A stretch of 64,000 nt of DNA from a bacterium (GTDB lineage Bacteria > Hinthialibacterota > Hinthialibacteria > Hinthialibacterales > Hinthialibacteraceae), in NCBI GenBank assembly GCA_963662285.2, contig CAXXMV010000006.1, positions 1,632,001 to 1,696,000 on the forward strand, in the 5' to 3' direction. The notes under the pieces were generated by a model, which saw nothing but the letters and a program-made list of their open reading frames with translations, ran no database searches and was not told where the DNA came from. Shown in pieces: positions 8,558 through 24,253 of the stretch; position 1 is the first letter of the stretch, and each line of letters starts with the position of its first letter. The position numbers and the translations under genes are program-made.

Positions 8558-9796
8558 CTATTCAAACTTCTTCAGCGCTAGAACCGCATTGTGGCCGCCA
8601 AAACCGAAGGAATTGGAGATAGCCGTTTTAATCTTCAGTTCACGCGCCTGATTGGGAACGTAATCCAGGTCGCAATCAGGATCGGGAGTCTGGTAGTTGA
8701 TTGTGGGAGGAACAATCCCGCACTGCAATGCTTTAGCGCAAGCAATGAATTCAACCGCTCCAGCAGCGCCCAACAGATGACCAGTCATAGACTTGGTGGA
8801 ACTGACTGGAATCTTTTTGGCGTGTTCTCCAAAAAGAGTCTTGATGGCAATAGTTTCAAATTTATCATTATAAGGCGTAGAGGTGCCATGCGCATTGATA
8901 TAATCAACATCTTCCAATGTCATGCCAGCATCTTCGACAGCTAGTTGCATAGCCTTTTTTGCTCCGATGCCTTCTGGATGGGGCATGGTGATATGATGCG
9001 CATCGCCGGACATGCCATAACCAGTCAACTCGGCGTAAATAGAAGCGCCGCGTTTTTTGGCGTGTTCCAGTTCTTCAATGACAACAATCCCGGCGCCTTC
9101 ACCCATGACGAAACCATCACGGTCTTTTTCAAATGGACGGCTCGCTCCTGTCGCATCATCGTTGCGTCTGGAAAGAGCGCGCAAAGAACAGAAACCGCCG
9201 AAGCCCAGTGGGGTTAAGGCTGCTTCCGTACCGCCTGCAATCATCACGTCAGCGTCATCACGCTGGATCAGACGCATAGCGTCGCCAATGGAATGATTGC
9301 CGGTGGCGCAGGCTGTGACCACGCTGGAATTGGGGCCTTGAAAACCAAAGCGTATAGATATCAGTCCCGCAGCGATATTAACGATCAACATCGGTATCAG
9401 ATGCGGGCTGATGCGCCTTGGTCCTTTGGCGTCCAATACTTCTTTTTGTTTTTCGAGAGTAGCTATCCCGCCTATTCCCGAACCAACGATAACGCCGGCG
9501 CGGGATAGATCGATGGATTCAAGATCCAAACCGGAATTTTCGACTGCTTCCGCTGACGCCACTATCGCGTACTGAGCAAAAAGATCAGTATGTTCGACGT
9601 CTTTAGGGTTGATAACTGGTTCAGGATTGAAATCCTTCACTTCAGCATCCACTTGTGATGAGTGTTTACTGGCATCAAAACGCGTAACCGGCCCGGTGCC
9701 TGACCTGCCGTTCTTCAGCGAATCCCAGAACTCACCGACGGTGTTTCCAATAGGAGATACAACTCCCATACCTGTTATGACAACACGACGAGACAT
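8558..9796 (-). CDS. fabF: 3-oxoacyl-ACP synthase II
   Basis: [32 protein letters not shown]. Start moved to ATG 9796, which has an AGGAG RBS. Confidence 0.96.
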
Positions 9797-9825
9797 TAAT
9801 TTGTTACTCCTATGGTCCAATACGA

Positions 9826-10068
9826 TTACGATACTTTGCTTTTAATGTACTCAATCGCATCACCAACTGTTTTGATCTTCTCTGCTTCCTCTTCAGGGAT
9901 TTCGTCGATGCCGAAATTTTCTTCAAATTCCATTACCAGTTCGACTGTATCTAAAGAGTCGGCGCCTAGATCACGCGTGAATGATTTCTCCGCCGAAATC
10001 TCGTCCTTATCCACTTTAAGTTTCTCAGCAATAATATCAATTACTTTTTCTTCAATGTTTTCGCTCAC
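9826..10068 (-). CDS. acpP: Acyl carrier protein
   Basis: [14 protein letters not shown] phosphopantetheine motif; lies between fabG and fabF. Confidence 0.97.
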
Positions 10069-10146
10069 GAATAGAACCTCCTTTGGTTTCTTTCTTTTTG
10101 GGTAAATCGATTTCAGCCGCTTCTGCGGCTATTTGTTCTAAGTTTA

Positions 10147-10893
10147 CTACATATTCAAACCGCCATCGATTACAATCACCTGACCGGTGATGTATGATGC
10201 TTCGTCTGAAGCGAGAAATCCGATAGAAGAAGCCACTTCCTCTGGTTTGCCGTAGCGCGCCAAGGGGATATTTTTCAGCATCATCTCTTTCGCAGATTCG
10301 CTCAGAGCGGCGGTCATTTTTGTCTCAATAAAACCGGGCGCCACCGCATTAACCGTAACGCCGCGTGAGGCCAATTCCTTGGCCATCGATTTGGTCATAC
10401 CGATTACGCCTGCTTTACTGGCGGCGTAATTGGCTTGTCCGGCGTTGCCCATCAGACCAACTACTGATGCAACGCTGATAATTCGACCATAGCGCGCCCG
10501 CATCATTAATTTAGCCGCAGCCCGCGCCATGTAGAATGATCCACTGAGATTAACCTTCAATACTGATTCCCAATCAGCGTCTTTCATGCGAATGGAAAGG
10601 GTATCGCGTGTAATTCCAGCATTATTTACTAAAATGTCAATCTTCTCGTACTGTTCTATACATGCATCAATCGCTTTTTGAGCGCCTTCAGAATTTGATA
10701 TATCTGCAGTTGCTCCAGCGGCTTGGATATTTCGTTCTTTAAGGTTGTTAATAGTCTCGTTTAAACCTTCTTCGTCAACATCCACCAGGAACAGTTTGGC
10801 GCCCATTCCAGCGAGATATTCAGCTGTCGCAAGGCCGATGCCGCGCGAACCGCCAGTTACCAAAGCTATTTTATCATCCAATCGAAAAGCCAT
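10147..10893 (-). CDS. fabG: 3-oxoacyl-ACP reductase
   Basis: [30 protein letters not shown]. Confidence 0.96.
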
Positions 10894-10936
10894 TTTCTTC
10901 CTCGCTATGTTAAATGTATACTACAACCTCAGAAAA

Positions 10937-11863
10937 TTATAAGTTCTTTAATTCATCTAATGAAGTATTTGTGCTTTCTATGGCATCTGTGCTGAAGCAG
11001 GGAAGGTCGGGGCAACAGGCTTTTACCAAGCCTTTCAGCACTTCTCCCGGACCTGATTCTACTGCAACCTGGCACTCTTTTTCAATAAAAGTCATCGAAT
11101 CAGTCCAACGCACCGGTTCGCAGAATTGCTTGATAATTTGTTCTTTGATCATAGCCGCGTCTGTAACCGCTTGACCTGTATTATTTGACACCCAGGGGAT
11201 AGTTGCGTCGCAGATTTCAATGTTGTTCAGAAATTCGGCGAATTGCTGCTGCGCTTCTTTCATAAGTGGAGAGTGAAACGCTCCACTGACTTTAAGCGGC
11301 ATGACGCGGCGGGCGCCTTTTTCTTTAAGAGCAGCGGCTATTGCTTCAACCGCATCCGGTTCTCCGGTAATAACCGTCTGTTTGGGAGAATTGAAATTGG
11401 CCGCCTGTACTATGCCATCCGTCCAATTCCGGCAAACTTGATCAACCGCTTCAGGCGCCAAGCCAAGAACGGCCGCCATGGCGCCCGGCTTGGATGTTTC
11501 ATGCATCAATTGAGCGCGTTTGGCGATAATCCGCAATCCTGTTTCAAAATCCCAGGCGCCTGAAGTGGTCAACGCGGCAAATTCACCAGCGCTGTGACCA
11601 GCTGTTAACACAGGAGTTACGCCCGATTCCTTCAAATATTCTGCAATAACGCAACTCAATACATAAATGCAGGGTTGAGTATAAAGGGTAATATTAAGAT
11701 CAGCTTTTTTATCTGGATTGGATAATTCTTCAACTGACCATCCCAGAATATCGGTTGCAGTTTGATAGCGGCTGTTGATTGAGGGATTGGATGCAATGAA
11801 ATCAAGCCCCATGCCTTCGCGCTGCGAGCCTTGTCCGGGGAAAAGGAAAGCAATATTTGTCAT
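10937..11863 (-). CDS. fabD: Malonyl-CoA:ACP transacylase
   Basis: FPGQGSQ, GHSAGE, VSGAFHSPLM. Confidence 0.96.
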   Translation of the reverse strand: MTNIAFLFPGQGSQREGMGLDFIASNPSINSRYQTATDILGWSVEELSNPDKKADLNITLYTQPCIYVLSCVIAEYLKESGVTPVLTAGHSAGEFAALTTSGAWDFETGLRIIAKRAQLMHETSKPGAMAAVLGLAPEAVDQVCRNWTDGIVQAANFNSPKQTVITGEPDAVEAIAAALKEKGARRVMPLKVSGAFHSPLMKEAQQQFAEFLNNIEICDATIPWVSNNTGQAVTDAAMIKEQIIKQFCEPVRWTDSMTFIEKECQVAVESGPGEVLKGLVKACCPDLPCFSTDAIESTNTSLDELKNL

Positions 11864-12019
11864 TGTTATAATTCCGGTAATTGATTTTCAATTTAGTTCA
11901 TGCCGTTTCTGACAAGCTATTCTTAAAAGGTATTCTGAAACGGCATGAGTTTTTCAGATAAGTTTTGGTTAATTCAATAATGCAGCAAAGCGCTGATTGG
12001 AGCGATTATAAAAATCACT

Positions 12020-13000
12020 CTAGAATTGCACCAGGTTAGCGCCCCAGGTCAGACCACCTCCGAAGGAAACGAATATGGCGGCGTCTCCTTCTTTTAACCG
12101 GCCTTCCTGTAATGCTTCATGTAATGCGATTGGAACAGTGGCAGCCGATGTATTGGCGTATTTTTCGATATTGACGTAAAAATTCTTTTCCAGACTAAGC
12201 CCTAAGCGCCTGGCTACAGCTTCGAGTATGCGAATATTGGCTTGATGCGGGATAATCAGAGCGATATCCTCTTTTTTCTTGTTGGTGCGTTCCAGCACCT
12301 TCTCGCACATCTGAGCCATAACCCGAACGGCTTGCTTGAAAATCTCTTTTCCATTCAGATAGAGAAAATGATCATTATTATCGATAGCTTGTTGAGTAAT
12401 AGGGACTCGTGATCCGCCGCATTTCTGGCATAGCAGATCAGCCATTGAGCCATCCGCACCCAATTCCGAACAGAGTACGCCTTTGGTTTCATGAGGTTGA
12501 ATGATGACCGCTCCGGCGCCGTCGCCGAAAAGAACGCAGGAATTGCGGTCTGTCCAGTCTACAACTTTAGTCAGCAGGTCAACGCCAACCAACAGAACAT
12601 TCTTATACTGGCCTGATTCTACGTATGCTTGAGCAATTGACAAACCGTATACAAAACCACTGCATGCAGCGGATAGATCGAATGCCATAGCATTCTTGGC
12701 GCCTAATCTATGTTGAAGGATGCATGCGGTTGCCGGCCAGCTGTAATCGCCTGAAATAGTGGCGATAATCACTGCATCAAGTTCTTCGGGATTTACGCCC
12801 GCAGATTTTAAGGCGTTTTGAGATGCTTCCAAGGCCAAGTCGGAAGCGGCTATGGATTCATCAGATACATGGCGTTCAGACATGCCAGTTCTTTCGCGAA
12901 TCCATTGATCAGATGTGTCTACCATCTTTTCCATATCATGGTTGGTTAGAACACGCTCTGGAACAGCCATACCAGTTGAAACTATATTTGCTAAAACCAC
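12020..13000 (-). CDS. fabH: 3-oxoacyl-ACP synthase III (start uncertain: GTG 13000 or ATG 13015)
   Basis: AACSGF, LFGDGAGA, PHQANIRI, NTSAA, FGGGLTWG. Confidence 0.95.
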   Translation of the reverse strand: MVLANIVSTGMAVPERVLTNHDMEKMVDTSDQWIRERTGMSERHVSDESIAASDLALEASQNALKSAGVNPEELDAVIIATISGDYSWPATACILQHRLGAKNAMAFDLSAACSGFVYGLSIAQAYVESGQYKNVLLVGVDLLTKVVDWTDRNSCVLFGDGAGAVIIQPHETKGVLCSELGADGSMADLLCQKCGGSRVPITQQAIDNNDHFLYLNGKEIFKQAVRVMAQMCEKVLERTNKKKEDIALIIPHQANIRILEAVARRLGLSLEKNFYVNIEKYANTSAATVPIALHEALQEGRLKEGDAAIFVSFGGGLTWGANLVQF

Positions 13001-13032
13001 TAAATTGCCTTTCATTATGAGAAAAAAATAAC

Positions 13033-14025
13033 TTATGTAACCACGGAGGCAAATTCCTCTATGGCGTGTTTGATCTGATCTGTCGGACATTTTTGAGCAG
13101 CTGTCCGGGCTGTTCTAATTCCATTAGCAATCGCTTTGGGACCAGAGCGCCCATGACCGATTAAGCAATGCCCGTTAACGCCCAAAAGAAGCGCAGCGCC
13201 ATAAGATGAATAATCGACGCGTTTCATAGTCTCCTGGAAGAAGGTTTTCCTGTGCGCCGAGTCAACTTCGTTACCGAAAACATGTTCGATTTCGATCTCC
13301 ATGGCCCGGCAGAACATCTTGGCGAAACCTTCGCCGAATTTAAGAATTACGTTGCCGATGAAACCATCGCAGACCACTACATCTGCAGTTCCCCGCATGA
13401 TATCGACGCCTTCAACGTTACCTATATAGTTGATGGGAGCTGTCTTAAGCAGTTTATGCGTATTGAAAGTAAGTTCGTTGCCCTTACTTTTTTCTTCACC
13501 GATAGAAAGCAACCCGATTTTCGGATTGGAAACGTTGAAAGCCATTTTCTTATAGATGGAACCCATCACAGCGAAATGCAATAAATGCTCCGGCTTGCAA
13601 TCCACTGTTGCGCCCACATCTAATAGAAGCGTATAGCCATCAACCGTAGGGAAGGGAGCGATGATTCCCGGTTTGGATATATCGGCGAAGCGTCCCAGAA
13701 CGAATATGGCGAAACCAACCGTAGCGCCGGAGTTGCCCATAGAAAGCAAGGCGTCCGCTTTACCTTGCTTAACTAATGATGTTGCTACGGCGATAGAGGA
13801 ATCACGTTTGGTTTTCAGAGCCGTTGAAGGGGAGTCATGCATATCAACGACGGTCGGAGCATCAACGATAGTAACGTCTAAGCCATCGCACAGTTTATTA
13901 AGACGATCCTGCACCCCGACCAGAATGATTTCCGTATCGGTTTCTTCCGATAAAAATAAGCGAACGCCCTCAATGACATCGTCAGGCGCCCTATCGCCGC
14001 CCATGGCGTCAATGGCGATTCTCAT
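13033..14025 (-). CDS. plsX: Phosphate acyltransferase
   Basis: IAIDAMGGD, LDVGATVDC, GEEKSKG, DVVVCDGFIGN; position between rpmF and fabH. Confidence 0.95.
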   Translation of the reverse strand: MRIAIDAMGGDRAPDDVIEGVRLFLSEETDTEIILVGVQDRLNKLCDGLDVTIVDAPTVVDMHDSPSTALKTKRDSSIAVATSLVKQGKADALLSMGNSGATVGFAIFVLGRFADISKPGIIAPFPTVDGYTLLLDVGATVDCKPEHLLHFAVMGSIYKKMAFNVSNPKIGLLSIGEEKSKGNELTFNTHKLLKTAPINYIGNVEGVDIMRGTADVVVCDGFIGNVILKFGEGFAKMFCRAMEIEIEHVFGNEVDSAHRKTFFQETMKRVDYSSYGAALLLGVNGHCLIGHGRSGPKAIANGIRTARTAAQKCPTDQIKHAIEEFASVVT

Positions 14026-14074
14026 GCGTATTTCCTTCCAGGTATTTCAGCAGCCTATACGCCGTTAAACGGCT

Positions 14075-14242
14075 TTAGACTACCGTTGCATTCTTGTAAA
14101 AACCACAATGAGGGCATACGCGATGCGGCATTTTCCAACTACGGCAATTAGGACATTCTGATAATGATGCAACCTTGATAGCATCATGTGAACGTCCCAT
14201 ACGGTTTTTTGATCTTGATTTTCTGTGTTTCGGATGAGCCAT
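14075..14242 (-). CDS. rpmF: 50S ribosomal protein L32 (55 aa; below the ORF-track cutoff)
   Basis: Own translation: MAHPKHRKSRSKNRMGRSHDAIKVASLSECPNCRSWKMPHRVCPHCGFYKNATVV; zinc-ribbon form, directly upstream of plsX. Confidence 0.95.
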   Translation of the reverse strand: MAHPKHRKSRSKNRMGRSHDAIKVASLSECPNCRSWKMPHRVCPHCGFYKNATVV

Positions 14243-14344
14243 GATTTCCTCACAATAAAATAGATTTGTTAAAGATTGATTAAAAATATAATGACCTGAA
14301 TTGGAGTAGCCGGCAAAAACCGTTTTCGACTTTTTACCGTTTCG

Positions 14345-14833
14345 TCATATTTGGCCAAATTTTTCCTTTAATCGTTGTGCAACATATTCCGGTACATAAT
14401 CACTGATATCGCCGCCAACTTTAGAAACTTCTTTAACTAGACGGGCGCGAAGATAAATATATTCAAGACTTGGCGCCATAAAAACCGTTTCTATATCGCA
14501 AGCCAGTTTCCGGTTAGTTAGAGCCATTTCAAATTCATATTCAAAATCGGAAACTGCGCGTAAACCACGCAGGATTAAATTCGCTTTTTTCTGACGAACG
14601 AAATCAACCAGCAATCCACTAAAGGAATCTAACTCGATGTTACTAATATTACTGGTGACTTTTTCAAGCATGGAAACCCGTTCTTCGATGGTAAACAACG
14701 GCATTTTGCTGGGATTAGTAACTACCGCAACAACCAGCCGGTCGAAGATTTTTGCGCCCCGTTCGATTAAGTCTAAATGGCCGTTGGTGACGGGATCGAA
14801 CATTCCCGGATATACAGCAATTCTTTGGGGCAT
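14345..14833 (-). CDS. coaD: Phosphopantetheine adenylyltransferase
   Basis: YPGMFDPVTNGHLD, RGLRAVSDFEYE. Confidence 0.96.
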   Translation of the reverse strand: MPQRIAVYPGMFDPVTNGHLDLIERGAKIFDRLVVAVVTNPSKMPLFTIEERVSMLEKVTSNISNIELDSFSGLLVDFVRQKKANLILRGLRAVSDFEYEFEMALTNRKLACDIETVFMAPSLEYIYLRARLVKEVSKVGGDISDYVPEYVAQRLKEKFGQI

Positions 14834-15037
14834 TATTTCAAATCCTAAACAGAGTTAAAACCTAATAAATTTACCAGTAAATAAACAAAGCCAACTGCAA
14901 CCAAGTAGGGTACTTGCGTAAGGGCATTTTATCAAGCGGCGCACTGCATATTGTGTATTTCTTGTTTTAATACACTGATTATATTAATTATTATCTACAT
15001 AATGCCTGACATTAACTGCCCCTGATTACTGATTATT

Positions 15038-16108
15038 TCAATTGGTTGACCAAGGGGCTTTTTTACCAACTGCTTCAACAACCGGAGGAAGAACTTTCAT
15101 TATCTCTTCGAATCCTTGGGCGTCAAGCGATTGTTTCCCATCAGAAAAAGCGCGTGATGGTTCTGGATGAACTTCCAGCATTATACCATGACAGCCCGAT
15201 GCGGCTGATGCGAGGCTCATGGGTTTTACCAGATTTATATCGCCTGTTCCATGGCTGGGATCGACTATAACCGGCAAGTGGGTCAAATCTTTCAGAGCTG
15301 GAACTGCATTCAAATCAAGCACATTCCTGTATTGCGTTTCAAAAGTACGAATACCGCGTTCGCACAGAATCACATTATTATTGCCTTGCGATAATATATA
15401 TTCCGCCGACATCAACCATTCAATAATGGTTGATGACATTCCCCTTTTTAACAGAATTGGCCGTTTTGTCGCTCCCAGCGACTTTAATAGAAAGAAATTC
15501 TGCATGTTACGGGCGCCGATTTGTATTATGTCAGAGTATTGGGATACTAATTCCAGGTGATGCGCATCCATTAACTCCGTCACCACTGCAAGCCCATATT
15601 CTTGACGCGCTTCAGCCAATAATTTCAGACCTTCTTCTTCCAATCCCTGGAAACTGTAAGGAGAAGTTCTGGGTTTAAAAGCGCCTCCTCGCAGGCAGCA
15701 AGCTCCGAACTGTTTGGCGATTTTGGCGGATTCAAGAATCTGATCGCGGTTTTCCACTGAGCAGGGACCAGCGATAACCGTAAATTCCGGACCGCCTATA
15801 GTGATTTTCTTTTTGCCTTCTTTCCATTCAAACTCAAATTCTATGATAGTATCTGGACGGATGAGTCCTTTTTGAATTTCGCGGCTGACTAATTTATATG
15901 GGGGAAGAATAAACTCTACTTTATCAACGCCCGGCTGACTGAGCATGCGGTCATATAGACCTTCTTTACCGCGTTCGTCTCCCACTGCGGCGAGGACGGT
16001 TAAGTTGGTTCCATAAATAGGGTGAACGGTATATCCCGCTTCCTCGATTAAATTTTCAACATTTTTGATATCTTCCTTGGTCGCCTTGGTCTTCATCTGG
16101 ATAATCAT
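15038..16108 (-). CDS. aroF: 3-deoxy-7-phosphoheptulonate (DAHP) synthase, type I-beta with N-terminal regulatory domain
   Basis: IAGPCSVE, RGGAFKPRTSPYSFQG, QIGARNMQN, DPSHGTG. Confidence 0.93.
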   Translation of the reverse strand: MIIQMKTKATKEDIKNVENLIEEAGYTVHPIYGTNLTVLAAVGDERGKEGLYDRMLSQPGVDKVEFILPPYKLVSREIQKGLIRPDTIIEFEFEWKEGKKKITIGGPEFTVIAGPCSVENRDQILESAKIAKQFGACCLRGGAFKPRTSPYSFQGLEEEGLKLLAEARQEYGLAVVTELMDAHHLELVSQYSDIIQIGARNMQNFFLLKSLGATKRPILLKRGMSSTIIEWLMSAEYILSQGNNNVILCERGIRTFETQYRNVLDLNAVPALKDLTHLPVIVDPSHGTGDINLVKPMSLASAASGCHGIMLEVHPEPSRAFSDGKQSLDAQGFEEIMKVLPPVVEAVGKKAPWSTN

Positions 16109-16555: not shown

Positions 16556-18952
16556 TTATCTCAAAAGATCAAGAAACATGTTGTTATACAAGTTATTGGC
16601 TTGAGATTGAACATTGATATTGCTTTGCAGAAGCATCTGGTTCAATGAGTTCCGGGTTGATTCTCTGGCGAAGTCGGCATCCATAATTCTTGATCGGGAT
16701 GCAAGTAGATTTTCAGAAGCGACGGATAAATTATTGGCGGTCGCTTCGAGCCGGTTGGTGACGGCGCCAATTTCTCCGCGCGTCTGGTTAACTTGTTCCA
16801 TGGCCTGATCAACAATAGCCAGCGCTTCATCAACGCCGCCTGCTTCAGTTATGTCAATATCATTGAGCGACCGGCCTTTTCCTAAACCTAATGATCCAGG
16901 GCGTACGTCGCCAAACCTCATGCCCATTCGATCTCCGGCGTTGGCGCCAATCTGGAAATTGGCCTCCCGGCTTACAGCGGATATGACTACAGTGCTGAAT
17001 GCTCCCTCGCCCGCATCGGGGACATTGACGTTGGCGTCAAAATCAAGCGTTAGCGTTTCACCCTGACGGATGCCATTGTTAAATGTTACATCCTGCGCGC
17101 CCGCTCCAAACCGGACATTGGGACCGCCATTAAGGGAACCGCTGAACTCTTCGCGGGTAACGTTAATTTCATCAGTTCCATTGCTGAGGTTATCGCCCAT
17201 ACGTAAGGTTATCTGTGAAGCGCCTGCGCCGTTTGAATCGCCGGGGCGTCCATAGAGAGTGGCATTTTCGCCAGCCCTAACTCGTTGCGCCGGGCCGCCA
17301 TTTACCCTTACCGTGGCTTGTTGATCGTTGCCTGCTGTTACGGTGTTGGCTGAATCTGAAATTGTGGCGAAGGTTCCACCTCCGGCGGAGCGGTCGTTAA
17401 CCGTGATGTTGAAATTGGATTGTGATGTTCCGGCGACGTCATCCACCAGTTGAAGGTTGCCGCCGGATGTCAACCGGGCGGTGGCGTCTTCAAAGCCGCT
17501 TTGTCTGCCAATGCCTCCAGCGGCGTTGGTGCGGTCACGAACATTCAGTTCGTCAACCAGGTCTTGTATGGTTACAGCTGCGCCGTTGCCCGCTGACCCA
17601 TCAACATTGGATACGGTTATGGTATTGGTGAAGGTTGATCCATCGGCGTTGGTTCCATTGATGCTGATAGTATCGCCTTGAGCCAGGGTTGCGCCATTGA
17701 ATACTGAACCGATCAGGTTGGTTGTTAAATCCGCTGCTCCTCCGCCAGCTTGTTGGAAGGAGACGTTGCTTTCAACTACCCGCGCCTGGGCTTGGGTGAC
17801 ATCGGAAACCTCTATGGTCAGCGTTCCGGTATCGAAGGTATTGCCCGTGATGGCGGTGACGGCGTTGCCCACCTGGGCGCCGGTAGCTGCGCCGCCGATT
17901 TCTGCGGCGCGGGTGGTTGCGGTTGTATTTTGAACTCGGTTATTTGCATCAAGGGATGTGAAATTTACATTGAAATCAGAAACTCCAGTCACCGCGCCGT
18001 TGGAGAACTCCATGCGTCCAGTAGTTGCGTTGAATGAAACGTTGGTTTCAGCCGCATTGGTTCCAGCGGCGCTATTGACGCCTTGTTCCATTTCGGCGGC
18101 GTCAATCGATGCTTGGATGGCATCGGCCAGACTGGTTCCGGCGCCTCCACCTCCGGCGATATCTGATCCCGCGGATATTTGGAATGAACCGGAAAATTCC
18201 GTCACGCCATCAGCCAACACGCCGCTGAAGGCAATAGTTCCACCAGCCTGGAGCGCCGCTCCGTTGAATGTCACATTGGTAAGGTTCTCACCAGCAGCTG
18301 CGGCGCCGGTTCCATCATCGAAGGTTCCCTGAGTGACGGCGATATCCTGTTGATTTTGGATTCCGGCGTTGATTGTTGCCGCGCCGGGATCATTTCCGCT
18401 GACAATAGTAGCTGAACCTTCCTGGACGCGGGTGATATTGAAAAAGTTTTCCCGTGTGGTCAGGTCGCTATCATCAACATTAACTCCCATATCGGGGGTT
18501 CCCGGACGGATTCCGGCGCTTGAATCGAAATCACCATTTAAGAGAGTATTGGATCCGAATTGAGTAGTATTGGCGATGCGGCCTATTTCATCAACATATT
18601 GATTAATCTCTAATTGAATGGCTTGTTGAGCGCTTTGATCCAATACTCCGGTATTGCCGGATTGAACCACTAACTCACGTATACGCTGGAGGTTTTGGTT
18701 GACCGTATCGAGCGATGAATCAGCCACATTGGCCAGATTTATACCGGTTTGAGTGGCATCGAAAGCTTCTCCTAATCCTCGAAACTGGCTGTTAAGCCGA
18801 TTGGCGATGCTCAGACCAGCTGCATCGTCACCCGCCTGATTGATGCGAAGACCTGAGGTGAGGCGATTCATATTGGTGTTGATAGAACGGTTGAGACCAA
18901 TAAGGTTTTGAATAGAAGATAATGAACTTAGGTTGTTGTTGATACTAGTCAT
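16556..18952 (-). CDS. fliC: Large flagellin (798 aa)
   Basis: N-terminus RLTSGLRINQAGDDAAGL, LQRIREL; C-terminus FQIGAN, RGEIGAVTNRLE, SRIMDADFA. Confidence 0.92.
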   Translation of the reverse strand: MTSINNNLSSLSSIQNLIGLNRSINTNMNRLTSGLRINQAGDDAAGLSIANRLNSQFRGLGEAFDATQTGINLANVADSSLDTVNQNLQRIRELVVQSGNTGVLDQSAQQAIQLEINQYVDEIGRIANTTQFGSNTLLNGDFDSSAGIRPGTPDMGVNVDDSDLTTRENFFNITRVQEGSATIVSGNDPGAATINAGIQNQQDIAVTQGTFDDGTGAAAAGENLTNVTFNGAALQAGGTIAFSGVLADGVTEFSGSFQISAGSDIAGGGGAGTSLADAIQASIDAAEMEQGVNSAAGTNAAETNVSFNATTGRMEFSNGAVTGVSDFNVNFTSLDANNRVQNTTATTRAAEIGGAATGAQVGNAVTAITGNTFDTGTLTIEVSDVTQAQARVVESNVSFQQAGGGAADLTTNLIGSVFNGATLAQGDTISINGTNADGSTFTNTITVSNVDGSAGNGAAVTIQDLVDELNVRDRTNAAGGIGRQSGFEDATARLTSGGNLQLVDDVAGTSQSNFNITVNDRSAGGGTFATISDSANTVTAGNDQQATVRVNGGPAQRVRAGENATLYGRPGDSNGAGASQITLRMGDNLSNGTDEINVTREEFSGSLNGGPNVRFGAGAQDVTFNNGIRQGETLTLDFDANVNVPDAGEGAFSTVVISAVSREANFQIGANAGDRMGMRFGDVRPGSLGLGKGRSLNDIDITEAGGVDEALAIVDQAMEQVNQTRGEIGAVTNRLEATANNLSVASENLLASRSRIMDADFARESTRNSLNQMLLQSNINVQSQANNLYNNMFLDLLR

Positions 18953-19101
18953 GATCTTTTCTCCTGAATGAACGCTCCGTTTTTTAATGAAATACAGAGT
19001 GTATTATATTTTATCATTTTTATACCATGTTATACAAGCGATAAATTACATTATGTTTACTAATATAAAGTACATTGATGCAATATTTGTTTGCAACCAG
19101 A

Positions 19102-21441
19102 TCATGGAAGATCTAACAGGATTTGCAATACTGCTTGCGGCATAGAGTTAGCTTGCGCCAACACTGCGCTTTGCGCTTGCAACATAACAGTATTTAAGGC
19201 TAATTCTGTAGTTTCCTGTGCTATATCAGCGCTGACAATGCTGGTATGTGCGTTCTCAATGTCTAATGAGGCTAAATCGAGAGTTTCTATTGCATCGTCC
19301 AGGCGGGAAGCAAAAGCGCCTAATCTGGCGCTGAAACCATTAACTTGTTCCAGGGCGTCATCAATTATAGTCAAGGCGGCGGTAGCGCCAGATGCGGTAG
19401 TCACATTTATGCTGTCTAAATTATTAGTTGAGTTGCTTCCTAAGTTTTCTGAACGCAAGTCAGCAAAGATGAATAATTTCTGGCTGTTGGAATCTTTGCC
19501 GATTTGGAAATTAACTGCATTGCTGGTGGTTGAGAGAACGAACGTTTCACCCCCCGATGATGCAAGGGTTGTGGCATCCAGGATGGAATCGAAATCAAGT
19601 GTAACCTGTTGGAATTTCTTAATGGGGTAAATAGAAGCTTGACCGGCGGTGAATTGCACTGCCTGGTCTCCATTTTGGAATGTGACTATTTCGCCGCCAT
19701 TCAAACTACCGACAAACTCTTTGGCGGAAGTCTCCAATTGATCATCGCCTGCAGCGAGTCCCGTGCCTAACCTGATAGTAACTTCCGGATTTGGACCGCC
19801 GGATAGATTAACGCCTTCCAGAGTTACAACTTGCCCGGCATCGACCTGCTGCGCCGCGCCTCCATCAATTGAAACGGTAGCTTTTTCTCTGGAGCCTGCC
19901 GCATCAACTGTAGAATTTACGGTTTGGCCTCCAGCGCTCACAATTATTTGCAGATTGGTTGTTGAATCTTTTCCAATATCATCAATTAATTGAATTTCAC
20001 CTGCGCCGGTTAGAGTGGCGATGGCGCCGTTAAATCCCCGGCTGGTCAGGCTTTGATCCCGGTTGTTTAATTCTTTAATTAAACCGGAATATGTTTCAAT
20101 AATTCCATCTCCGACGCCTGTATCGAATCCGACGGTGTAAGTAGTAGTAAAGGTGCTGCCATCAGATTCCGTGCCATTGATTTGGAAAGTACTGCCCATG
20201 ACGATAGATACGCCATTGAGCAACGAGTCGCTTAAACTGGTGGTATTGAATACAGGTCCGCCGCCATTACGGTCAAAATTGTTGCTGGTAGTAATTTGCC
20301 GTCTCTGCTCAGCGATAATATTACTTACCGTAATATCGAAGGTTCCTGAGTCAAAGGTTGAACCTGTTATGGCGGTTACGCTATTACCAATCAGAGCTTC
20401 AGATATCGTTCCCCCTACTTCCTGGTTATAAATGTTGGTTGCTCTATCGATATCAAAAGTAGTTCGAATAGTTCCCGCCGAATTTCTGACGGCGAAATCG
20501 ATATCGAATTCGGAAATGTTCTGGTCTGTTCCACTGTTGAACTCTAATCGTCCGTTGGCGGTAAGAGCAACGTTTGTTTCCAGTACACCGGTTCCTTCAA
20601 TACCGATATCGTTTTCTGCGGCGTTTATGGAAGCCTGTATGGTATTAATAAGGGTAGTTACGGTGTTTCCTGCCATGACGGATAGCGTACCGCTGAAAAA
20701 AGTGGTTCCATCAGCCAAGACGCCGGAGAAGGTAATATAGTCCATCGAATTTAAGGTAACCCGGTTCATCGAGGTTGCAGCTAAATTGTTGCCGCCAACC
20801 GCCGCGATTCCACCATTAATTAATTGTCCTGTCGACACGGCGATATCGGTAGCGGCGGAAATTCCGGTATGGAAGGTTCCGTCGCCTGCGTCTTTAATTT
20901 CAGTGGTTCCTGAGTCGGTTACGCCGATATTTAAGTATGAACGTCCCGAAAGTAAACTGGTTGCATTGGGACCGAATGATAAACTGGCGCCAAAGTCGCG
21001 CGTACCGCTTTTGAAATTTACGTCGGTGGTTAATGATCCGTTGAGCAGAAATTTATTGCCGAATTTGGTTGTGTTGGCGATTTCATTTAAGGCTTCAATT
21101 TTCTCCTGGATAACGGCCTGTTGGGCGCCGCTTCCACCTGCCGCGGCAACGGCGGCAACACGGATATCATTTAATAGACTAACAATCTGATCAGTTGCGC
21201 TTGAAGCAGTAGCAGTTAAGTTAATAGCTTCCTGGGTATTTTCGGATGCCCGGCTGAGACCACGGAATTGTGTTTCCAGTTGATTACTAAGAATATATCC
21301 GCCAGGATCATCTTTGGCGCTCTTGATGCGAAGCCCTGAACTGATCCTTTCTAGATTAGTCGCGATTCGATTGTCTGTATTATTTAGCCGTCCAATTATT
21401 TGTAAGGCGCTGATATTAGTGCGGATACTTTCAATAACCAT
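19102..21441 (-). CDS. fliC: Large divergent flagellin (779 aa)
   Basis: ERISSGLRIKSAKDDPGG, TKFGNKFLLNG, FQIG, ARLGAFASRL, ADIAQE...QAQSAVLAQAN. Confidence 0.9.
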   Translation of the reverse strand: MVIESIRTNISALQIIGRLNNTDNRIATNLERISSGLRIKSAKDDPGGYILSNQLETQFRGLSRASENTQEAINLTATASSATDQIVSLLNDIRVAAVAAAGGSGAQQAVIQEKIEALNEIANTTKFGNKFLLNGSLTTDVNFKSGTRDFGASLSFGPNATSLLSGRSYLNIGVTDSGTTEIKDAGDGTFHTGISAATDIAVSTGQLINGGIAAVGGNNLAATSMNRVTLNSMDYITFSGVLADGTTFFSGTLSVMAGNTVTTLINTIQASINAAENDIGIEGTGVLETNVALTANGRLEFNSGTDQNISEFDIDFAVRNSAGTIRTTFDIDRATNIYNQEVGGTISEALIGNSVTAITGSTFDSGTFDITVSNIIAEQRRQITTSNNFDRNGGGPVFNTTSLSDSLLNGVSIVMGSTFQINGTESDGSTFTTTYTVGFDTGVGDGIIETYSGLIKELNNRDQSLTSRGFNGAIATLTGAGEIQLIDDIGKDSTTNLQIIVSAGGQTVNSTVDAAGSREKATVSIDGGAAQQVDAGQVVTLEGVNLSGGPNPEVTIRLGTGLAAGDDQLETSAKEFVGSLNGGEIVTFQNGDQAVQFTAGQASIYPIKKFQQVTLDFDSILDATTLASSGGETFVLSTTSNAVNFQIGKDSNSQKLFIFADLRSENLGSNSTNNLDSINVTTASGATAALTIIDDALEQVNGFSARLGAFASRLDDAIETLDLASLDIENAHTSIVSADIAQETTELALNTVMLQAQSAVLAQANSMPQAVLQILLDLP

Positions 21442-21496
21442 GATCGTTCTCCCACAATAGGTTTGAAAAAACTTAGGTAAAAAGAGAACTTTTTAC

Positions 21497-21523
21497 TAAA
21501 GTTTTTGATAAATTTGCCTATAA
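21497..21523 (+). promoter_or_regulatory. sigma28 (FliA)-like promoter pointing away from the flagellin genes, into the structured region
   Basis: TAAA-GTTTTTGATAAATTT(15 nt)-GCCTATAA; one mismatch to TAAA-N15-GCCGATAA. Confidence 0.55.
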
Positions 21524-21529
21524 TGAGAG

Positions 21530-22184
21530 AAGAGCATTTCTCATAAGATTTCATATGAAATCAGAGAACGGCTTAAAAAAGGCTATAAAACAGGCGTAGC
21601 GCCTGCGGACCTCGTCTGCACGTGCTGCGGCGGTCAATTAAGTCATAACTCTCACTTCTCTTGGCCGGGATGCGAAGTTATGACTTAATTTTTTAAGAAC
21701 TATATTTTCTACCGCAATTTATCTTCTCTCATCACATTTCTTTATTAATAACGCATTGGAGATGTGCTTATAAAAAGCATCTCCAGACGCGATGTTTTTC
21801 GTTACGTTCCTATCGTTGTCGTCGAAGGGCCTCGGAGATCTTCAACGACTGGCCAAAATTGGCGTAAGTTCCTTACATTGAAACAAACATTTCCTTACAG
21901 ACATAATCTATGGTCTGCGGCGGTCAGGATAAGCATCTTTCAGCCGGGATATTATAAATATATATATTTATAATATCCCGGTTAAACACGCCAATTTTAC
22001 AACAGGAACGCAAATATTTTTTGTTCTATCAGAGAGAAGACGGACGGTTTTCCACTGGAGGGAAAGGCGCCGTTCCCGCTGACCTCATCATTTGTCTCTT
22101 TCATTGCTGCGACGGTCAATTAAACCATGCTCACTTCACGAAAAACTTCTCGTTGGCCGGGATGCGAAGTTACTGCTTTTTTTT
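21530..22184 (+). ncRNA. Candidate large structured non-coding RNA or tandem cis-regulatory RNA (family not recognised)
   Basis: Three copies of CTGCGRCGGTCA...GCCGGGAT, nested long-range inverted repeats, several hairpins, and U-tracts at 21689-21694 and 22177-22184. G-U pairs mostly favour the plus strand. Confidence 0.5.
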
Positions 22185-22246
22185 AAATTCACTTTGAATA
22201 AATATACACCTCGATGAAAAGGTACTTTTCAAACTGTTCGTCATAT

Positions 22247-22274
22247 GTATCGGCATGACTTTAGAAAAACTTTA
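22247..22274 (-). promoter_or_regulatory. sigma28 (FliA/SigD) promoter pointing toward the flagellin genes
   Basis: Minus strand reads TAAA-GTTTTTCTAAAGTCAT(16 nt)-GCCGATAC. Confidence 0.75.
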
Positions 22275-22333
22275 GCTATTTTTTTTAATTTTTTCTAAAA
22301 AAAATAAAAAAATCTATTTATTAATAATAGATG

Positions 22334-22373
22334 TAAAAAAATGATTGACATTACCGATAATATCTGTTGTAAT
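22334..22373 (+). promoter_or_regulatory. Overlapping sigma28-like and sigma70-like promoters for the receiver-domain gene
   Basis: TAAA(22334)-N15-ACCGATAA(22353-22360) and TTGACA(22345)-N17-TGTAAT(22368-22373). Confidence 0.6.
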
Positions 22374-22506
22374 GTAATGTTCATTTTTCTATTTGTATGT
22401 AATGATATGATATGTACTAATAAATAATATAGTTAAATAGAATGTTTTGTTATAAATTTATAGAGTTATTTATTGAATTAATACTTTTAGAGAGCATGGA
22501 TTGTCA

Positions 22507-22890
22507 ATGCGTAAAACAGCGTTAGTGGTCGATGATGAACCAATTCCACGTACTTTTGTCTCTCATATCTTAAAATCCTTAGGATTTTTCGTTATTGAGG
22601 CCGATTCAGAGGAAAGCGCATGGGATAGTTTCGTCGAGAATGAAGAGGAATTGGATTATATAATTACCGAGATACATCTGGTAAGAGGTTCTGGACTAAA
22701 TTTATATCAAAGAATCAGGGACCGAAGCAAAAATAAGACGATAGTAGTATGTGATGATTGTTATGTTAACAATCATCAAGAAGTAATGGATGATCCCAAC
22801 GCAGTGCTGCTGGTTAAACCTTTTCCCGTGGACACCTTAATTGAGACTACCAATTTTACCAAACATAATAATAAAATAATATCAAGCTGA
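22507..22890 (+). CDS. Single-domain response-regulator receiver, atypical (phosphoacceptor Asp replaced by Glu)
   Basis: ALVVDDE...DYIITEIHL..GSG...LVKPF; ATG at 22507 chosen over TTG at 22501. Confidence 0.8.
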   Translation: MRKTALVVDDEPIPRTFVSHILKSLGFFVIEADSEESAWDSFVENEEELDYIITEIHLVRGSGLNLYQRIRDRSKNKTIVVCDDCYVNNHQEVMDDPNAVLLVKPFPVDTLIETTNFTKHNNKIISS

Positions 22891-22993
22891 TATTGAAATT
22901 TTCCTCCGTTATATCATTGAATTATTTCAAAACTATCCTGGTCATATTAAATATTGCTTAACAATTATTCCAAATAGTATTCGGTGAATATCA

Positions 22994-24253
22994 ATGCTCA
23001 CAGAAAAACAGATAAACATTGGTCGGCGCAATTTCATTAAGATGGTTTCTGCGTTGCCCGCAATTGGCTTGTTCGATTATTCAGCGCTTGATATGGAACC
23101 GGTCAAAGTAGCTTTGATCGGCGCTGGCGGAATCGGACTTGATCATATAAAGAAATTTGATCCTAAATATATTCAAGTAAAAGCGGTCTGCGATATCCGA
23201 CCCGGAGCGCAGGATAAAGCGCTGCATCTCCTTAAAAAAGAGCATGATATGCAAGCTGACGCCTACGCTGATTATAAAGATGCGCTAAAGCGGGATGATA
23301 TTGAGGCGGTGATTATTGGAACGCCTCTTTGGACTCACGCCCCAATCGCCATTGACGCCCTTAATGCCGGGAAACACGTATTTTGCGAAAAGATGATGGC
23401 TAAAACAGTTGAACAATGCCAGGCCATGATCGACGCCGCCGATAGTAATAAACGCATTTTGCAAATCGGTTACCAGCGTTTTTACAGTAAATTGTATCAA
23501 GATGCCTACCAATTGATACGTAACGGGCTTCTGGGCGATATCTATTACATCCGCACCTCATGGCATCTCAGCGGAGGGCGGAAACGTACTATTGAGGGCA
23601 GGGATAAGCGCGACATGGAAAAAGGTTTATTATCCCCCACCAAATATGGCTACCAGGACCTCGAACATCTGATTAACTGGCGTATGTATTGGAAATATTC
23701 TGAAGGATACGCCGCTGAATTGTTAAGCCATCAAACCGCTGTCACCAATTGGGTATATGACGCTGAACCCACATCAGTTATGGGAATGGGCGGAACCTAT
23801 ATATATAAGAATGACCGGGAAATCGAAGACCATTTTTATTGCACCTTCGGCTACCCGAACGGCCGCACGGTAACCAGTTCCATGATTCTTTCCAACGATT
23901 TTGAGCCGACTGGTGAAGTGATTATGGGTACAGAAGGAATACTGTATCTGATTGGATCATATCAGGCCTACCTGTTTCTACGCCAAGGCAAATCCAATTG
24001 GAAATACGCAGAGATTGATACTATAGCTAAAGACTTATCCAATAAACTTGATGTCAATAATTTACCTGATAAGAAAGTTGAACCAGTTAATTACGGTTCT
24101 GATGATTCATATAAAACAGAGTTCAGGGGATTCGCCAACGCCATTCGTAAAGACGGGCCGGTATTAAGCGGGGGCAGGGAAGGAATGGCGGCGGCCAAGG
24201 CCATCATCGCCGCTAATCGATCCATCAAATCCCGTCAAGCGGTTGAAATCTAG
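22994..24253 (+). CDS. Tat-exported Gfo/Idh/MocA family oxidoreductase
   Basis: GRRNFIK, IGAGGIG, GTPLWTH, HVFCEK. Confidence 0.9.
   Translation: MLTEKQINIGRRNFIKMVSALPAIGLFDYSALDMEPVKVALIGAGGIGLDHIKKFDPKYIQVKAVCDIRPGAQDKALHLLKKEHDMQADAYADYKDALKRDDIEAVIIGTPLWTHAPIAIDALNAGKHVFCEKMMAKTVEQCQAMIDAADSNKRILQIGYQRFYSKLYQDAYQLIRNGLLGDIYYIRTSWHLSGGRKRTIEGRDKRDMEKGLLSPTKYGYQDLEHLINWRMYWKYSEGYAAELLSHQTAVTNWVYDAEPTSVMGMGGTYIYKNDREIEDHFYCTFGYPNGRTVTSSMILSNDFEPTGEVIMGTEGILYLIGSYQAYLFLRQGKSNWKYAEIDTIAKDLSNKLDVNNLPDKKVEPVNYGSDDSYKTEFRGFANAIRKDGPVLSGGREGMAAAKAIIAANRSIKSRQAVEI

Follow-up and report, generated by a model that had tools for sequence, protein, structure and literature searches.

A putative ~800-nt flagellin mRNA leader overlapped by a predicted antisense small RNA at a Hinthialibacterales locus

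What occupies the gene-free gap of ~1 kb (21442-22500) upstream of a flagellin gene, here called flagellin A, in a bacterium of the family Hinthialibacteraceae (GenBank assembly GCA_963662285.2)? The gap lies in a stretch of 64,000 nucleotides (nt) of contig CAXXMV010000006.1 (positions 1,632,001 to 1,696,000 of the forward strand), which is referred to below as the window and whose numbering is used throughout. An initial annotation, made from the letters of the window, had described nested long-range pairing at 21722-22080 and had proposed a structured noncoding RNA (ncRNA) of ~650 nt on the plus strand, transcribed divergently from the flagellin genes; its alternative was an ~800-nt structured 5' leader of the flagellin messenger RNA (mRNA). 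Flagellin is among the costliest proteins of a motile cell, and its post-transcriptional restraint by CsrA and FliW is known. Comparison with related genomes leads us to conclude, with moderate confidence, that 21722-22080 is the central part of an ~800-nt regulatory leader of the flagellin A mRNA, encoded on the minus strand and overlapped by an antisense small RNA (sRNA). The locus would then point to a largely RNA-based solution, conserved across an order of little-studied bacteria, whose ingredients are a very long self-masking leader, a built-in decoy for the masking segment, and an antisense sRNA under the control of the same sigma factor.

Convergent sigma28-type promoters and a probable long leader

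The gene concerned and the two candidate promoters are the following.
19102-21441, minus strand: flagellin A (779 amino acids [aa]), with Pfam Flagellin_N and Flagellin_C domains; the gene that the putative leader would serve
21497-21523, plus strand: P_right, sigma28-type promoter, TAAAGTTT-N11-GCCTATAA, directed away from flagellin
22247-22274, minus strand: P_left, sigma28-type promoter, TAAAGTTT-N12-GCCGATAC, directed at flagellin

P_right had already been recognized as a sigma28-like promoter in the initial annotation, and comparison confirmed it: the element is near-invariant across 17 aligned genomes, lies ~100 nt upstream of the first copy of a repeated motif described below, and is present at every locus with sufficient flank. 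P_left is likewise conserved across 17 aligned genomes, as is an A-tract upstream of it in the promoter's own direction (that is, at higher plus-strand coordinates). Among 13 relaxed matches in the 7.3-Mb genome, only these two sites have a perfect -35 element. Exactly two strong sigma28-type promoters, convergent and flanking the array of motif copies, were found at 16 of 20 loci; three of the remaining four are truncated by contig ends. The genome encodes FliA, that is, sigma28 (236.8 bits versus a cut-off of 189.6), and P_right matches the FliA-dependent promoter consensus, TAAAGTTT-N11-GCCGATAA. Moreover, the only FlgM-family open reading frame (ORF) of the genome starts 68 nt downstream of a similar promoter, which supports the view that the FliA of this organism reads this consensus.

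P_left is situated 805 nt upstream of the flagellin A start codon, and flagellin A is the first ORF downstream of it. No sigma70-like site was found on the minus strand near the flagellin ATG, and a tblastx search revealed no conserved ORF in the spacer. Since 805 nt separate P_left from the ATG with no conserved ORF between them, the minus strand probably yields a long leader.

Two further observations concern promoters of this type. Another good sigma28-type promoter, TAAAGATT-N11-GCCGATAA, is located elsewhere in the genome (G000:C2:487207-487233, minus strand), 49 nt upstream of a 228-aa ORF. A conserved block follows the -10 element of P_left (22224-22246, minus strand) and reads approximately ATGACGACAAG in relatives and ATGACGAACAG here; it does not qualify as a conserved ORF, since many relatives lack the ATG.

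Covariation of the ribosome-binding site, an anti-Shine-Dalgarno segment and a mimic

Three short elements on the minus strand carry most of the argument for a regulatory leader.
21449-21455, minus strand: flagellin A Shine-Dalgarno (SD) sequence GGGAGAA, paired with the anti-SD when the proximal leader is folded
21523-21535, minus strand: CU-rich anti-SD, UGCUCUUCUCUCAU
21722-21730, minus strand: SD-mimic GAGAGAAGA, at about -289; the complement of the 5' arm of helix 1 (see below)

When the ~120 nt preceding the ATG were folded, the SD was paired with a CU-rich segment 80 to 100 nt upstream in 15 of 17 genomes. SD and anti-SD change together between lineages (GGGAGAA/UUCUCUC, GGAGAGAGAA/UUCUCUCUCC, GAGAGGAGCC/GGCUCUAUCUC and GGAGGAAACUG/CAGUUCCUCC), and duplexes of the two were more stable in cognate than in non-cognate combinations (-20.1 versus -15.7 kcal/mol; 0 of 5000 permutations as low). 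A repeat of this comparison, run together with the mimic tests below, gave -19.9 versus -15.3 kcal/mol, again with 0 of 5000. An upstream segment therefore stays complementary to the SD through sequence change, as would be expected of a leader that sequesters its ribosome-binding site. The DNA of the anti-SD overlaps the region in which the predicted sRNA starts, just past the -10 element of P_right.

Most relatives also carry a GA-rich run that copies their own SD at approximately -281 to -376. Whole-leader folds joined this mimic to the anti-SD at 10 of 15 loci, and mimic/anti-SD duplexes again favored cognate partners (-28.9 versus -22.6 kcal/mol; 0 of 5000 permutations as low). As a control, the mimic was set against the SD itself, and no cognate signal was obtained (1589/5000). 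An RNA that holds mimic, anti-SD and SD must span P_right and the whole sRNA region, which fits a start at the distal P_left. Comparison among the relatives establishes, as sequence elements of predicted function, the two promoters, the terminator, the repeated motif, helix 2, and the three-way relation of SD, anti-SD and mimic.

A repeated motif and a short transcript from P_right

The plus strand of the gap contains three direct copies of a unit of ~70 nt (21623-21692, 21913-21986 and 22105-22184; copies 1 to 3). The motif pattern matched three times in the 7.3-Mb genome, each time at this locus and on the plus strand, and the reversed-pattern control gave no match; the spacer sequence itself occurs once in the genome. 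By DNA search, copy 1 was found in 23 of 41 genomes, including this one; with a covariance model, the unit was found in 24 of 26 genomes of the order and in none of 9 other genomes of the class, with 2 to 3 copies per genome. Flagellin adjoins copy 1, divergently, at 18 of 19 loci of relatives. Each unit consists of CUGCGGCGGUC followed by a hairpin in which a near-invariant 25-nt loop, UCACUUCUCUUGGCCGGGAUGCGAA, sits on a variable stem. Two-sided changes occur at 13 of 13 base pairs (bp) of this stem (47 matches), and 85.4% of stem cells are paired, versus 64.9% in shuffles (0 of 500 as good) and 16 to 45% in slid controls. A loop pseudoknot of CGGUC with GGCCG was considered and dropped; inspection by eye showed three breaks and no compensatory change.

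Copy 1 belongs to the predicted product of P_right.
21530-21696, plus strand: predicted sRNA of ~165 nt containing copy 1, its start placed from P_right
21636-21696, plus strand: intrinsic terminator with a 15-bp stem, loop UCACUUCUCUUGGCCGGGAUGCGA and U6

The predicted sRNA comprises a variable 5' part, a conserved GGCGUAG, a hairpin (P1), CUGCGGCGGUC, and the terminator hairpin with its conserved 25-nt loop and U6. The copy-1 unit has a folding energy of -25 kcal/mol, and the copy-1 orthologues listed with non-Watson-Crick pairs have 8 G-U and 0 A-C on the plus strand. A terminator in the sense of the sRNA lies at -241 to -275 relative to the flagellin ATG at 15 of 15 loci; no other positionally conserved terminator-like site was detected on either strand of these loci. 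Attenuators in the sense of the leader were considered as well and set aside, being sporadic and unconserved across loci. The covarying 15-bp stem followed by U6 is what a discrete, short FliA-dependent transcript would display in silico. The product of P_right is therefore most likely an sRNA of ~165 nt (approximately 21530-21696) that stops before the structured domain of the initial annotation begins. The plus-strand transcript of ~650 nt proposed there, running from the promoter to the U8 tract at 22177-22184, does not agree with this, because the covarying terminator (21636-21690 plus U6) ends the unit ~165 nt from the promoter at 15 of 15 loci.

The predicted sRNA is perfectly antisense to leader positions of approximately -88 to -253. 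Searches for trans targets of the sRNA gave none above chance; the best hits outside the locus in the organism's own genome were 16 nt long, with an E value of 0.22. The 167 nt of the copy-1 sRNA contain two GGA motifs, which is no enrichment. When 20500-24000 was searched against Rfam 15 with cmscan at E values up to 10, no family reached its gathering score; the seven weak matches were all to eukaryotic microRNA or small nucleolar RNA models (E of 0.13 or worse; 14.6 to 24.9 bits versus gathering scores of 47 to 140). No aptamer model matched in this interval, and nothing pointed to a ligand. The comparison thus defines at least one predicted RNA family with no match in Rfam 15.

A second family was observed at two loci (L019:860-910 and L022:815-865), where the flagellin-sense strand carries a hairpin of 13 to 15 bp whose loop contains GCCUCGGAA. 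This is the opposite strand from that of the similar hairpin in the family of the window, which could reflect chance or a real difference.

Conserved and nonconserved structure in 21722-22080

The pairings reported in the initial annotation are exact: tcttctctc (21722-21730) with gagagaaga (22032-22040), here helix 1; cgttcct..gttgt (21805-21819) with acaacaggaacg (21999-22010), helix 2; and aaaattggcgt (21855-21865) with acgccaatttt (21988-21998), helix 3. The hairpins at 21757-21785, 21818-21849, 21898-21917, 21944-21981 and 22041-22078 are likewise in place. With the comparative results added, the domain and its surroundings can be described as follows.
21757-21785, strand not assigned: hairpin, at the place where relatives have a small GC hairpin and U-run, just before domain 2
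21805-21819, minus strand: first arm of helix 2 (CGTTCC..GTTGT in the plus reading), which closes domain 2
21818-21849, strand not assigned: conserved hairpin with loop GGGCCUCGGA
21855-21865, strand not assigned: first arm of helix 3 (partner, 21988-21998), in this genome only; no counterpart seen in relatives
21898-21986, minus strand: degenerate motif copy 2, with a P1-like hairpin (21898-21917), CUGCGGCGGUCAGGA, and a 19-bp AT-rich palindrome (21944-21981)
21999-22010, minus strand: second arm of helix 2 (ACAACAGGAACG in the plus reading)
22032-22040, minus strand: CU-run UCUUCUCUC, partner of the SD-mimic in helix 1 in the whole-leader fold of the window
22105-22184, minus strand: motif copy 3; the U8 tract comes after it on the plus strand

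Folding energies of 21722-22080 were compared with those of dinucleotide shuffles on both strands, a check that the initial annotation had suggested. The native sequence was better than all 100 shuffles on either strand, and more so on the minus strand (-124.2 kcal/mol, z = -8.96) than on the plus strand (-111.5 kcal/mol, z = -6.28). When the pair span was limited to 60 nt, the z scores were still -4.4 (plus) and -5.3 (minus), and the energy gained from long-range pairing was modest (plus, z = -1.8, 8 of 200 shuffles as good; minus, z = -2.6, 1 of 200). The excess over shuffles comes mostly from local hairpins. A perfect 11-bp long-range helix arose in 1 of 200 shuffles, and in the spacers of relatives the long-range gain was mostly not significant, with a varying degree of structure. 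The statement that G-U counts mostly favor the plus strand was not borne out: G-U pairs number 8 in the plus fold and 12 in the minus fold, and the minus strand is more stable by 12.7 kcal/mol.

Helices 1 and 2 occur in the minimum-free-energy fold, and helix 3 occurs in the centroid. Covariation in homologues, also named at the outset as a check, upheld part of the domain. Helix 2 was recovered as GCGUUCC(C/U).. with ..(G/A)GGAACGC in 10 aligned genomes, position 8 alternating between C-G and U-A; 106 of 130 cells are paired, versus 94.3 with shuffled partners (14 of 5000), and the span of the helix is 146 to 160 nt in nine relatives and 207 nt here. The hairpin at 21818-21849 keeps a constant GGGCCUCGGA loop on differing stems at 15 loci, with energies of -12.3 to -34.8 kcal/mol. 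Because helix 2 and the hairpin that it encloses are conserved, the core of the domain is a genuine structured element that relatives share. Of the other long-range helices, neither the outer one (helix 1) nor the inner one (helix 3) is conserved by this sequence comparison; for helix 1, a test of the upstream region against the mimic, cognate versus non-cognate, gave no signal (275/5000 and 2587/5000). In copy 2, the palindrome at 21944-21981 stands in for the usual stem and engulfs the CCGGGAU of the loop, a situation found in this genome only. The hairpin of copy 3 is weak (-8.8 kcal/mol on the plus strand versus -11.4 on the minus strand).

Strand preference of the repeated units

Stability was not distributed evenly between strands. 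On the plus strand, hairpins of copy 1 were at least as stable as on the minus strand in 18 of 22 cases, and those of the downstream copies were more stable on the minus strand in 19 of 25. Over all unit stems, A-C combinations, which are G-U on the minus strand, numbered 39 versus 27 G-U, and A-C was confined to the downstream copies. For the P1-like region of domain 2, the minus strand was the more stable one at 9 of 13 loci and the plus strand at 3. Our reading is that domain 2 and copy 3 belong to the minus-strand leader, and the comparative evidence as a whole (P_left, the covariation of SD, anti-SD and mimic, and the minus-strand folding) favors the ~800-nt leader that the initial annotation had offered as its alternative.

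A proposed switch in the flagellin leader

From these elements, a mechanism can be proposed. FliA would start the mRNA at P_left, near 22240, with transcription proceeding leftwards to the ATG at 21441, while a second FliA-type promoter, on the opposite strand within the leader DNA, would yield the sRNA of ~165 nt that stops at 21636-21696. By covariation, the last 350 nt of the putative leader form a three-part switch. In one state, the anti-SD (21523-21535) can mask the ribosome-binding site (21449-21455) by pairing with it; in the alternative state, the anti-SD can pair with the SD-mimic (21722-21730), leaving the site free. Upstream of the switch, domain 2, closed by helix 2, would hold the hairpin at 21818-21849 and the degenerate copy of the sRNA motif, with copy 3 following. 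These downstream copies carry CUGCGGCGGUC and GGCCGGGAUGCGAAG in antisense and may serve as docking sites for the sRNA. Binding of the sRNA between mimic and anti-SD, overlapping the 5' part of the anti-SD, would shift the balance of the switch and may also make the leader a substrate for a double-strand RNase. The outcome would be that FliA times flagellin translation, alongside the CsrA-FliW system.

We lean weakly towards activation as the effect of the sRNA. We also put forward, as a tentative idea, that the order possesses an RNA-only checkpoint, in which a three-state leader is set by a FliA-driven antisense sRNA with loop-loop docking on the upstream copies, forming a self-timing circuit parallel to CsrA-FliW. 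Natural compensatory variants in the relatives make the switch directly testable.

Several points weigh against a regulated minus-strand leader of this kind. Both transcripts, with their ends and strands, are predicted only from sequence. Shared ancestry among the relatives makes the permutation tests look more independent than they are, and the alignment of the unit stem, having been fitted to the covariance model, is biased in favor of that stem. When the whole leader of the window is folded, the mimic takes the upstream CU-run as its partner and not the anti-SD. When the sRNA-bound stretch was blocked in silico, accessibility of the SD rose at 6 of 16 loci, fell at 3 (including the window) and was unchanged at 7, a mixed result. 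Helix 2 has no strand preference (8 G-U versus 10 A-C), nor does the hairpin with the GGCCUCGGA loop (7 versus 8 loci by energy). On the plus strand, helix 2 is followed by T-runs in the window and, as judged by eye, in several relatives, and these would also fit a plus-strand RNA ending there. Finally, the flagellin loci of motif-less genomes gave no guide to the ancestral position of the promoters.

Alternative explanations

The single plus-strand structured ncRNA of ~650 nt (promoter at 21497-21523, core at 21722-22080, U8 tract at 22177-22184) would account for a plus-strand promoter that is real and conserved, for the good folding of the plus strand of the domain (z = -6.3) and for the shared orientation of all motif copies. 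We nevertheless regard it as unlikely, since it has to pass the strong conserved terminator found 165 nt from the promoter at 15 of 15 loci, and in relatives a second small GC hairpin and U-run before domain 2. Its supposed 3' end is no better placed: the U8 tract exists, as had been noted, but no real hairpin precedes it. Nor was a second plus-strand sigma28-type promoter found inside the array at any of 20 loci, and both the downstream copies and the domain (by the 12.7 kcal/mol given above) fold better on the minus strand. In a second proposal, the copies would be paralogous plus-strand sRNAs, arrayed at this locus and acting in trans like sibling sRNAs, with P_left serving another purpose. 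The 2 to 3 copies per genome, their conserved loops and their covarying stems agree with such an array, and the available text of a Campylobacter study reports paralogous sigma28-dependent ncRNAs (PMC4626219). However, a promoter of its own and a consistent terminator are found for copy 1 only, a T-run is missing from many downstream copies, which also fold better on the minus strand, and the genome offers no significant complementary site outside the locus (the 16-nt best hit mentioned above), so that this array, too, seems improbable.

A slightly better case, although still a doubtful one, can be made for domain 2 (~21800-22015) as a separate plus-strand RNA opposite the leader, a CsrA-binding sponge whose ends are paired by helix 2 and followed by a U-run. 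The conserved blocks of its plus strand all hold GGA (CUCGGAA in the hairpin loop, GUCAGGAA, CCGGGAU and GAAGGAAC), which keeps a CsrA-binding reading alive; fliW and csrA are adjacent in the genome, and the T-runs after helix 2 lie on the strand required. Against it, no conserved promoter was found upstream of domain 2. The sole sigma70-like site (21878-21907, plus strand; TTGAAA-18-CATAAT, 10/12) lies just upstream of copy 2 and is at chance level, with 6 such sites found versus 4.3 expected. The P1-like hairpin favors the minus strand at 9 of 13 loci, the copy-1 sRNA is not enriched in GGA, and helices render the counts of GGA and UCC symmetrical. That the structures are functionless, as chance palindromes in AT-rich intergenic DNA or remains of a mobile repeat, is very improbable. 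It is true that the 19-bp AT palindrome and helices 1 and 3 occur in this genome only, and the long-range energy gain is only modestly above that of shuffles, but the motif is shared by 24 of 26 genomes of the order, with flagellin beside copy 1 at 18 of 19 loci of relatives, and several helices covary. A mobile repeat was rejected, the spacer being unique in the genome.

Comparison with known systems

The sigma28-dependent sRNAs of Escherichia coli include UhpU, MotR, FliX and FlgO and are Hfq dependent. In the available text of one account, the sigma28-dependent sRNAs of E. coli are derived from untranslated regions and act in trans (PMC10578931); the available text of two others describes sigma28-dependent sRNAs in Campylobacter jejuni (PMC11187230, PMC4626219). 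The sRNA predicted here resembles both groups in its FliA-type promoter, in its position at a flagellar gene and, presumably, in a post-transcriptional tuning of flagellar synthesis. It differs from the E. coli examples in having its own promoter inside leader DNA, in being fully antisense to the leader, in the extra docking copies predicted upstream, and in the lack of an Rfam match.

The leaders of hag and flaA are tens of nucleotides long, and the partner switch of CsrA, FliW and flagellin acts at the SD. CsrA-FliW control of flagellin is described for Bacillus subtilis hag and C. jejuni flaA in the available text of two studies (PMC6529632, PMC4894983). The putative leader shares with that switch a post-transcriptional control of flagellin at the SD, and fliW and csrA are adjacent in this genome too; it differs in its length of ~800 nt and in an SD that is predicted to be masked by an RNA anti-SD with an SD-mimic as competitor. 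The leader of rpoS, with DsrA, RprA and ArcZ, provides a case of anti-antisense activation of an SD-masking leader. There, as predicted here, an upstream segment occludes the SD, and pairing of a small RNA with that region can free it; unlike the rpoS regulators, the sRNA of the present locus would be encoded in cis on the opposite strand, and the leader holds an internal SD-mimic.

CopA/CopT and RNAI/RNAII exemplify plasmid antisense control by loop-loop kissing. In C. jejuni, CJnc180/190 is a cis-antisense pair processed by RNase III, according to the available text of its description (PMC8687705). Overlapping convergent units, predicted here, and loops that are complementary between partners are features in common with CJnc180/190 and pairs of the CopA/CopT type; loops of 25 nt, a target with repeated copies, and a flagellin mRNA leader as that target set the present locus apart. 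A keyword search of the literature found no description of a flagellin leader that combines convergent FliA promoters, an antisense sRNA and an SD-mimic, a search too limited to show that none exists.

Neighboring genes and other features

The genes next to the gap and the flagellin A gene are listed here.
16556-18952: second flagellin, next after flagellin A
22501-22890, plus strand: CheY-like single-domain response regulator, 129 aa, on the other side of the gap

The flagellin pair is adjoined by fabF-like, fabD-like, fabH-like, plsX and DAHP synthase genes (8558-16108). Since these neighbors serve fatty-acid synthesis or encode DAHP synthase, the pair lies outside any flagellar gene cluster. 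The fliW (133.1 bits) and csrA (89.8 bits) genes of this genome are adjacent and on the same strand (G000:C1:76993-77679), which indicates that a CsrA system of the FliW type is present. A homologue of the response regulator occupies the equivalent position at 4 of 19 loci of relatives (L005, L010, L011 and L017), and in the window its promoter presumably lies in the AT-rich stretch 22300-22500.

The second flagellin gene has a short upstream region (18953-19101, minus strand), and a scan of this region found no sigma28-type promoter. Two GGA motifs, ACGGAGCG and UCAGGAGAAAAG, lie near the start of the gene and resemble the two-site CsrA arrangement of B. subtilis hag.

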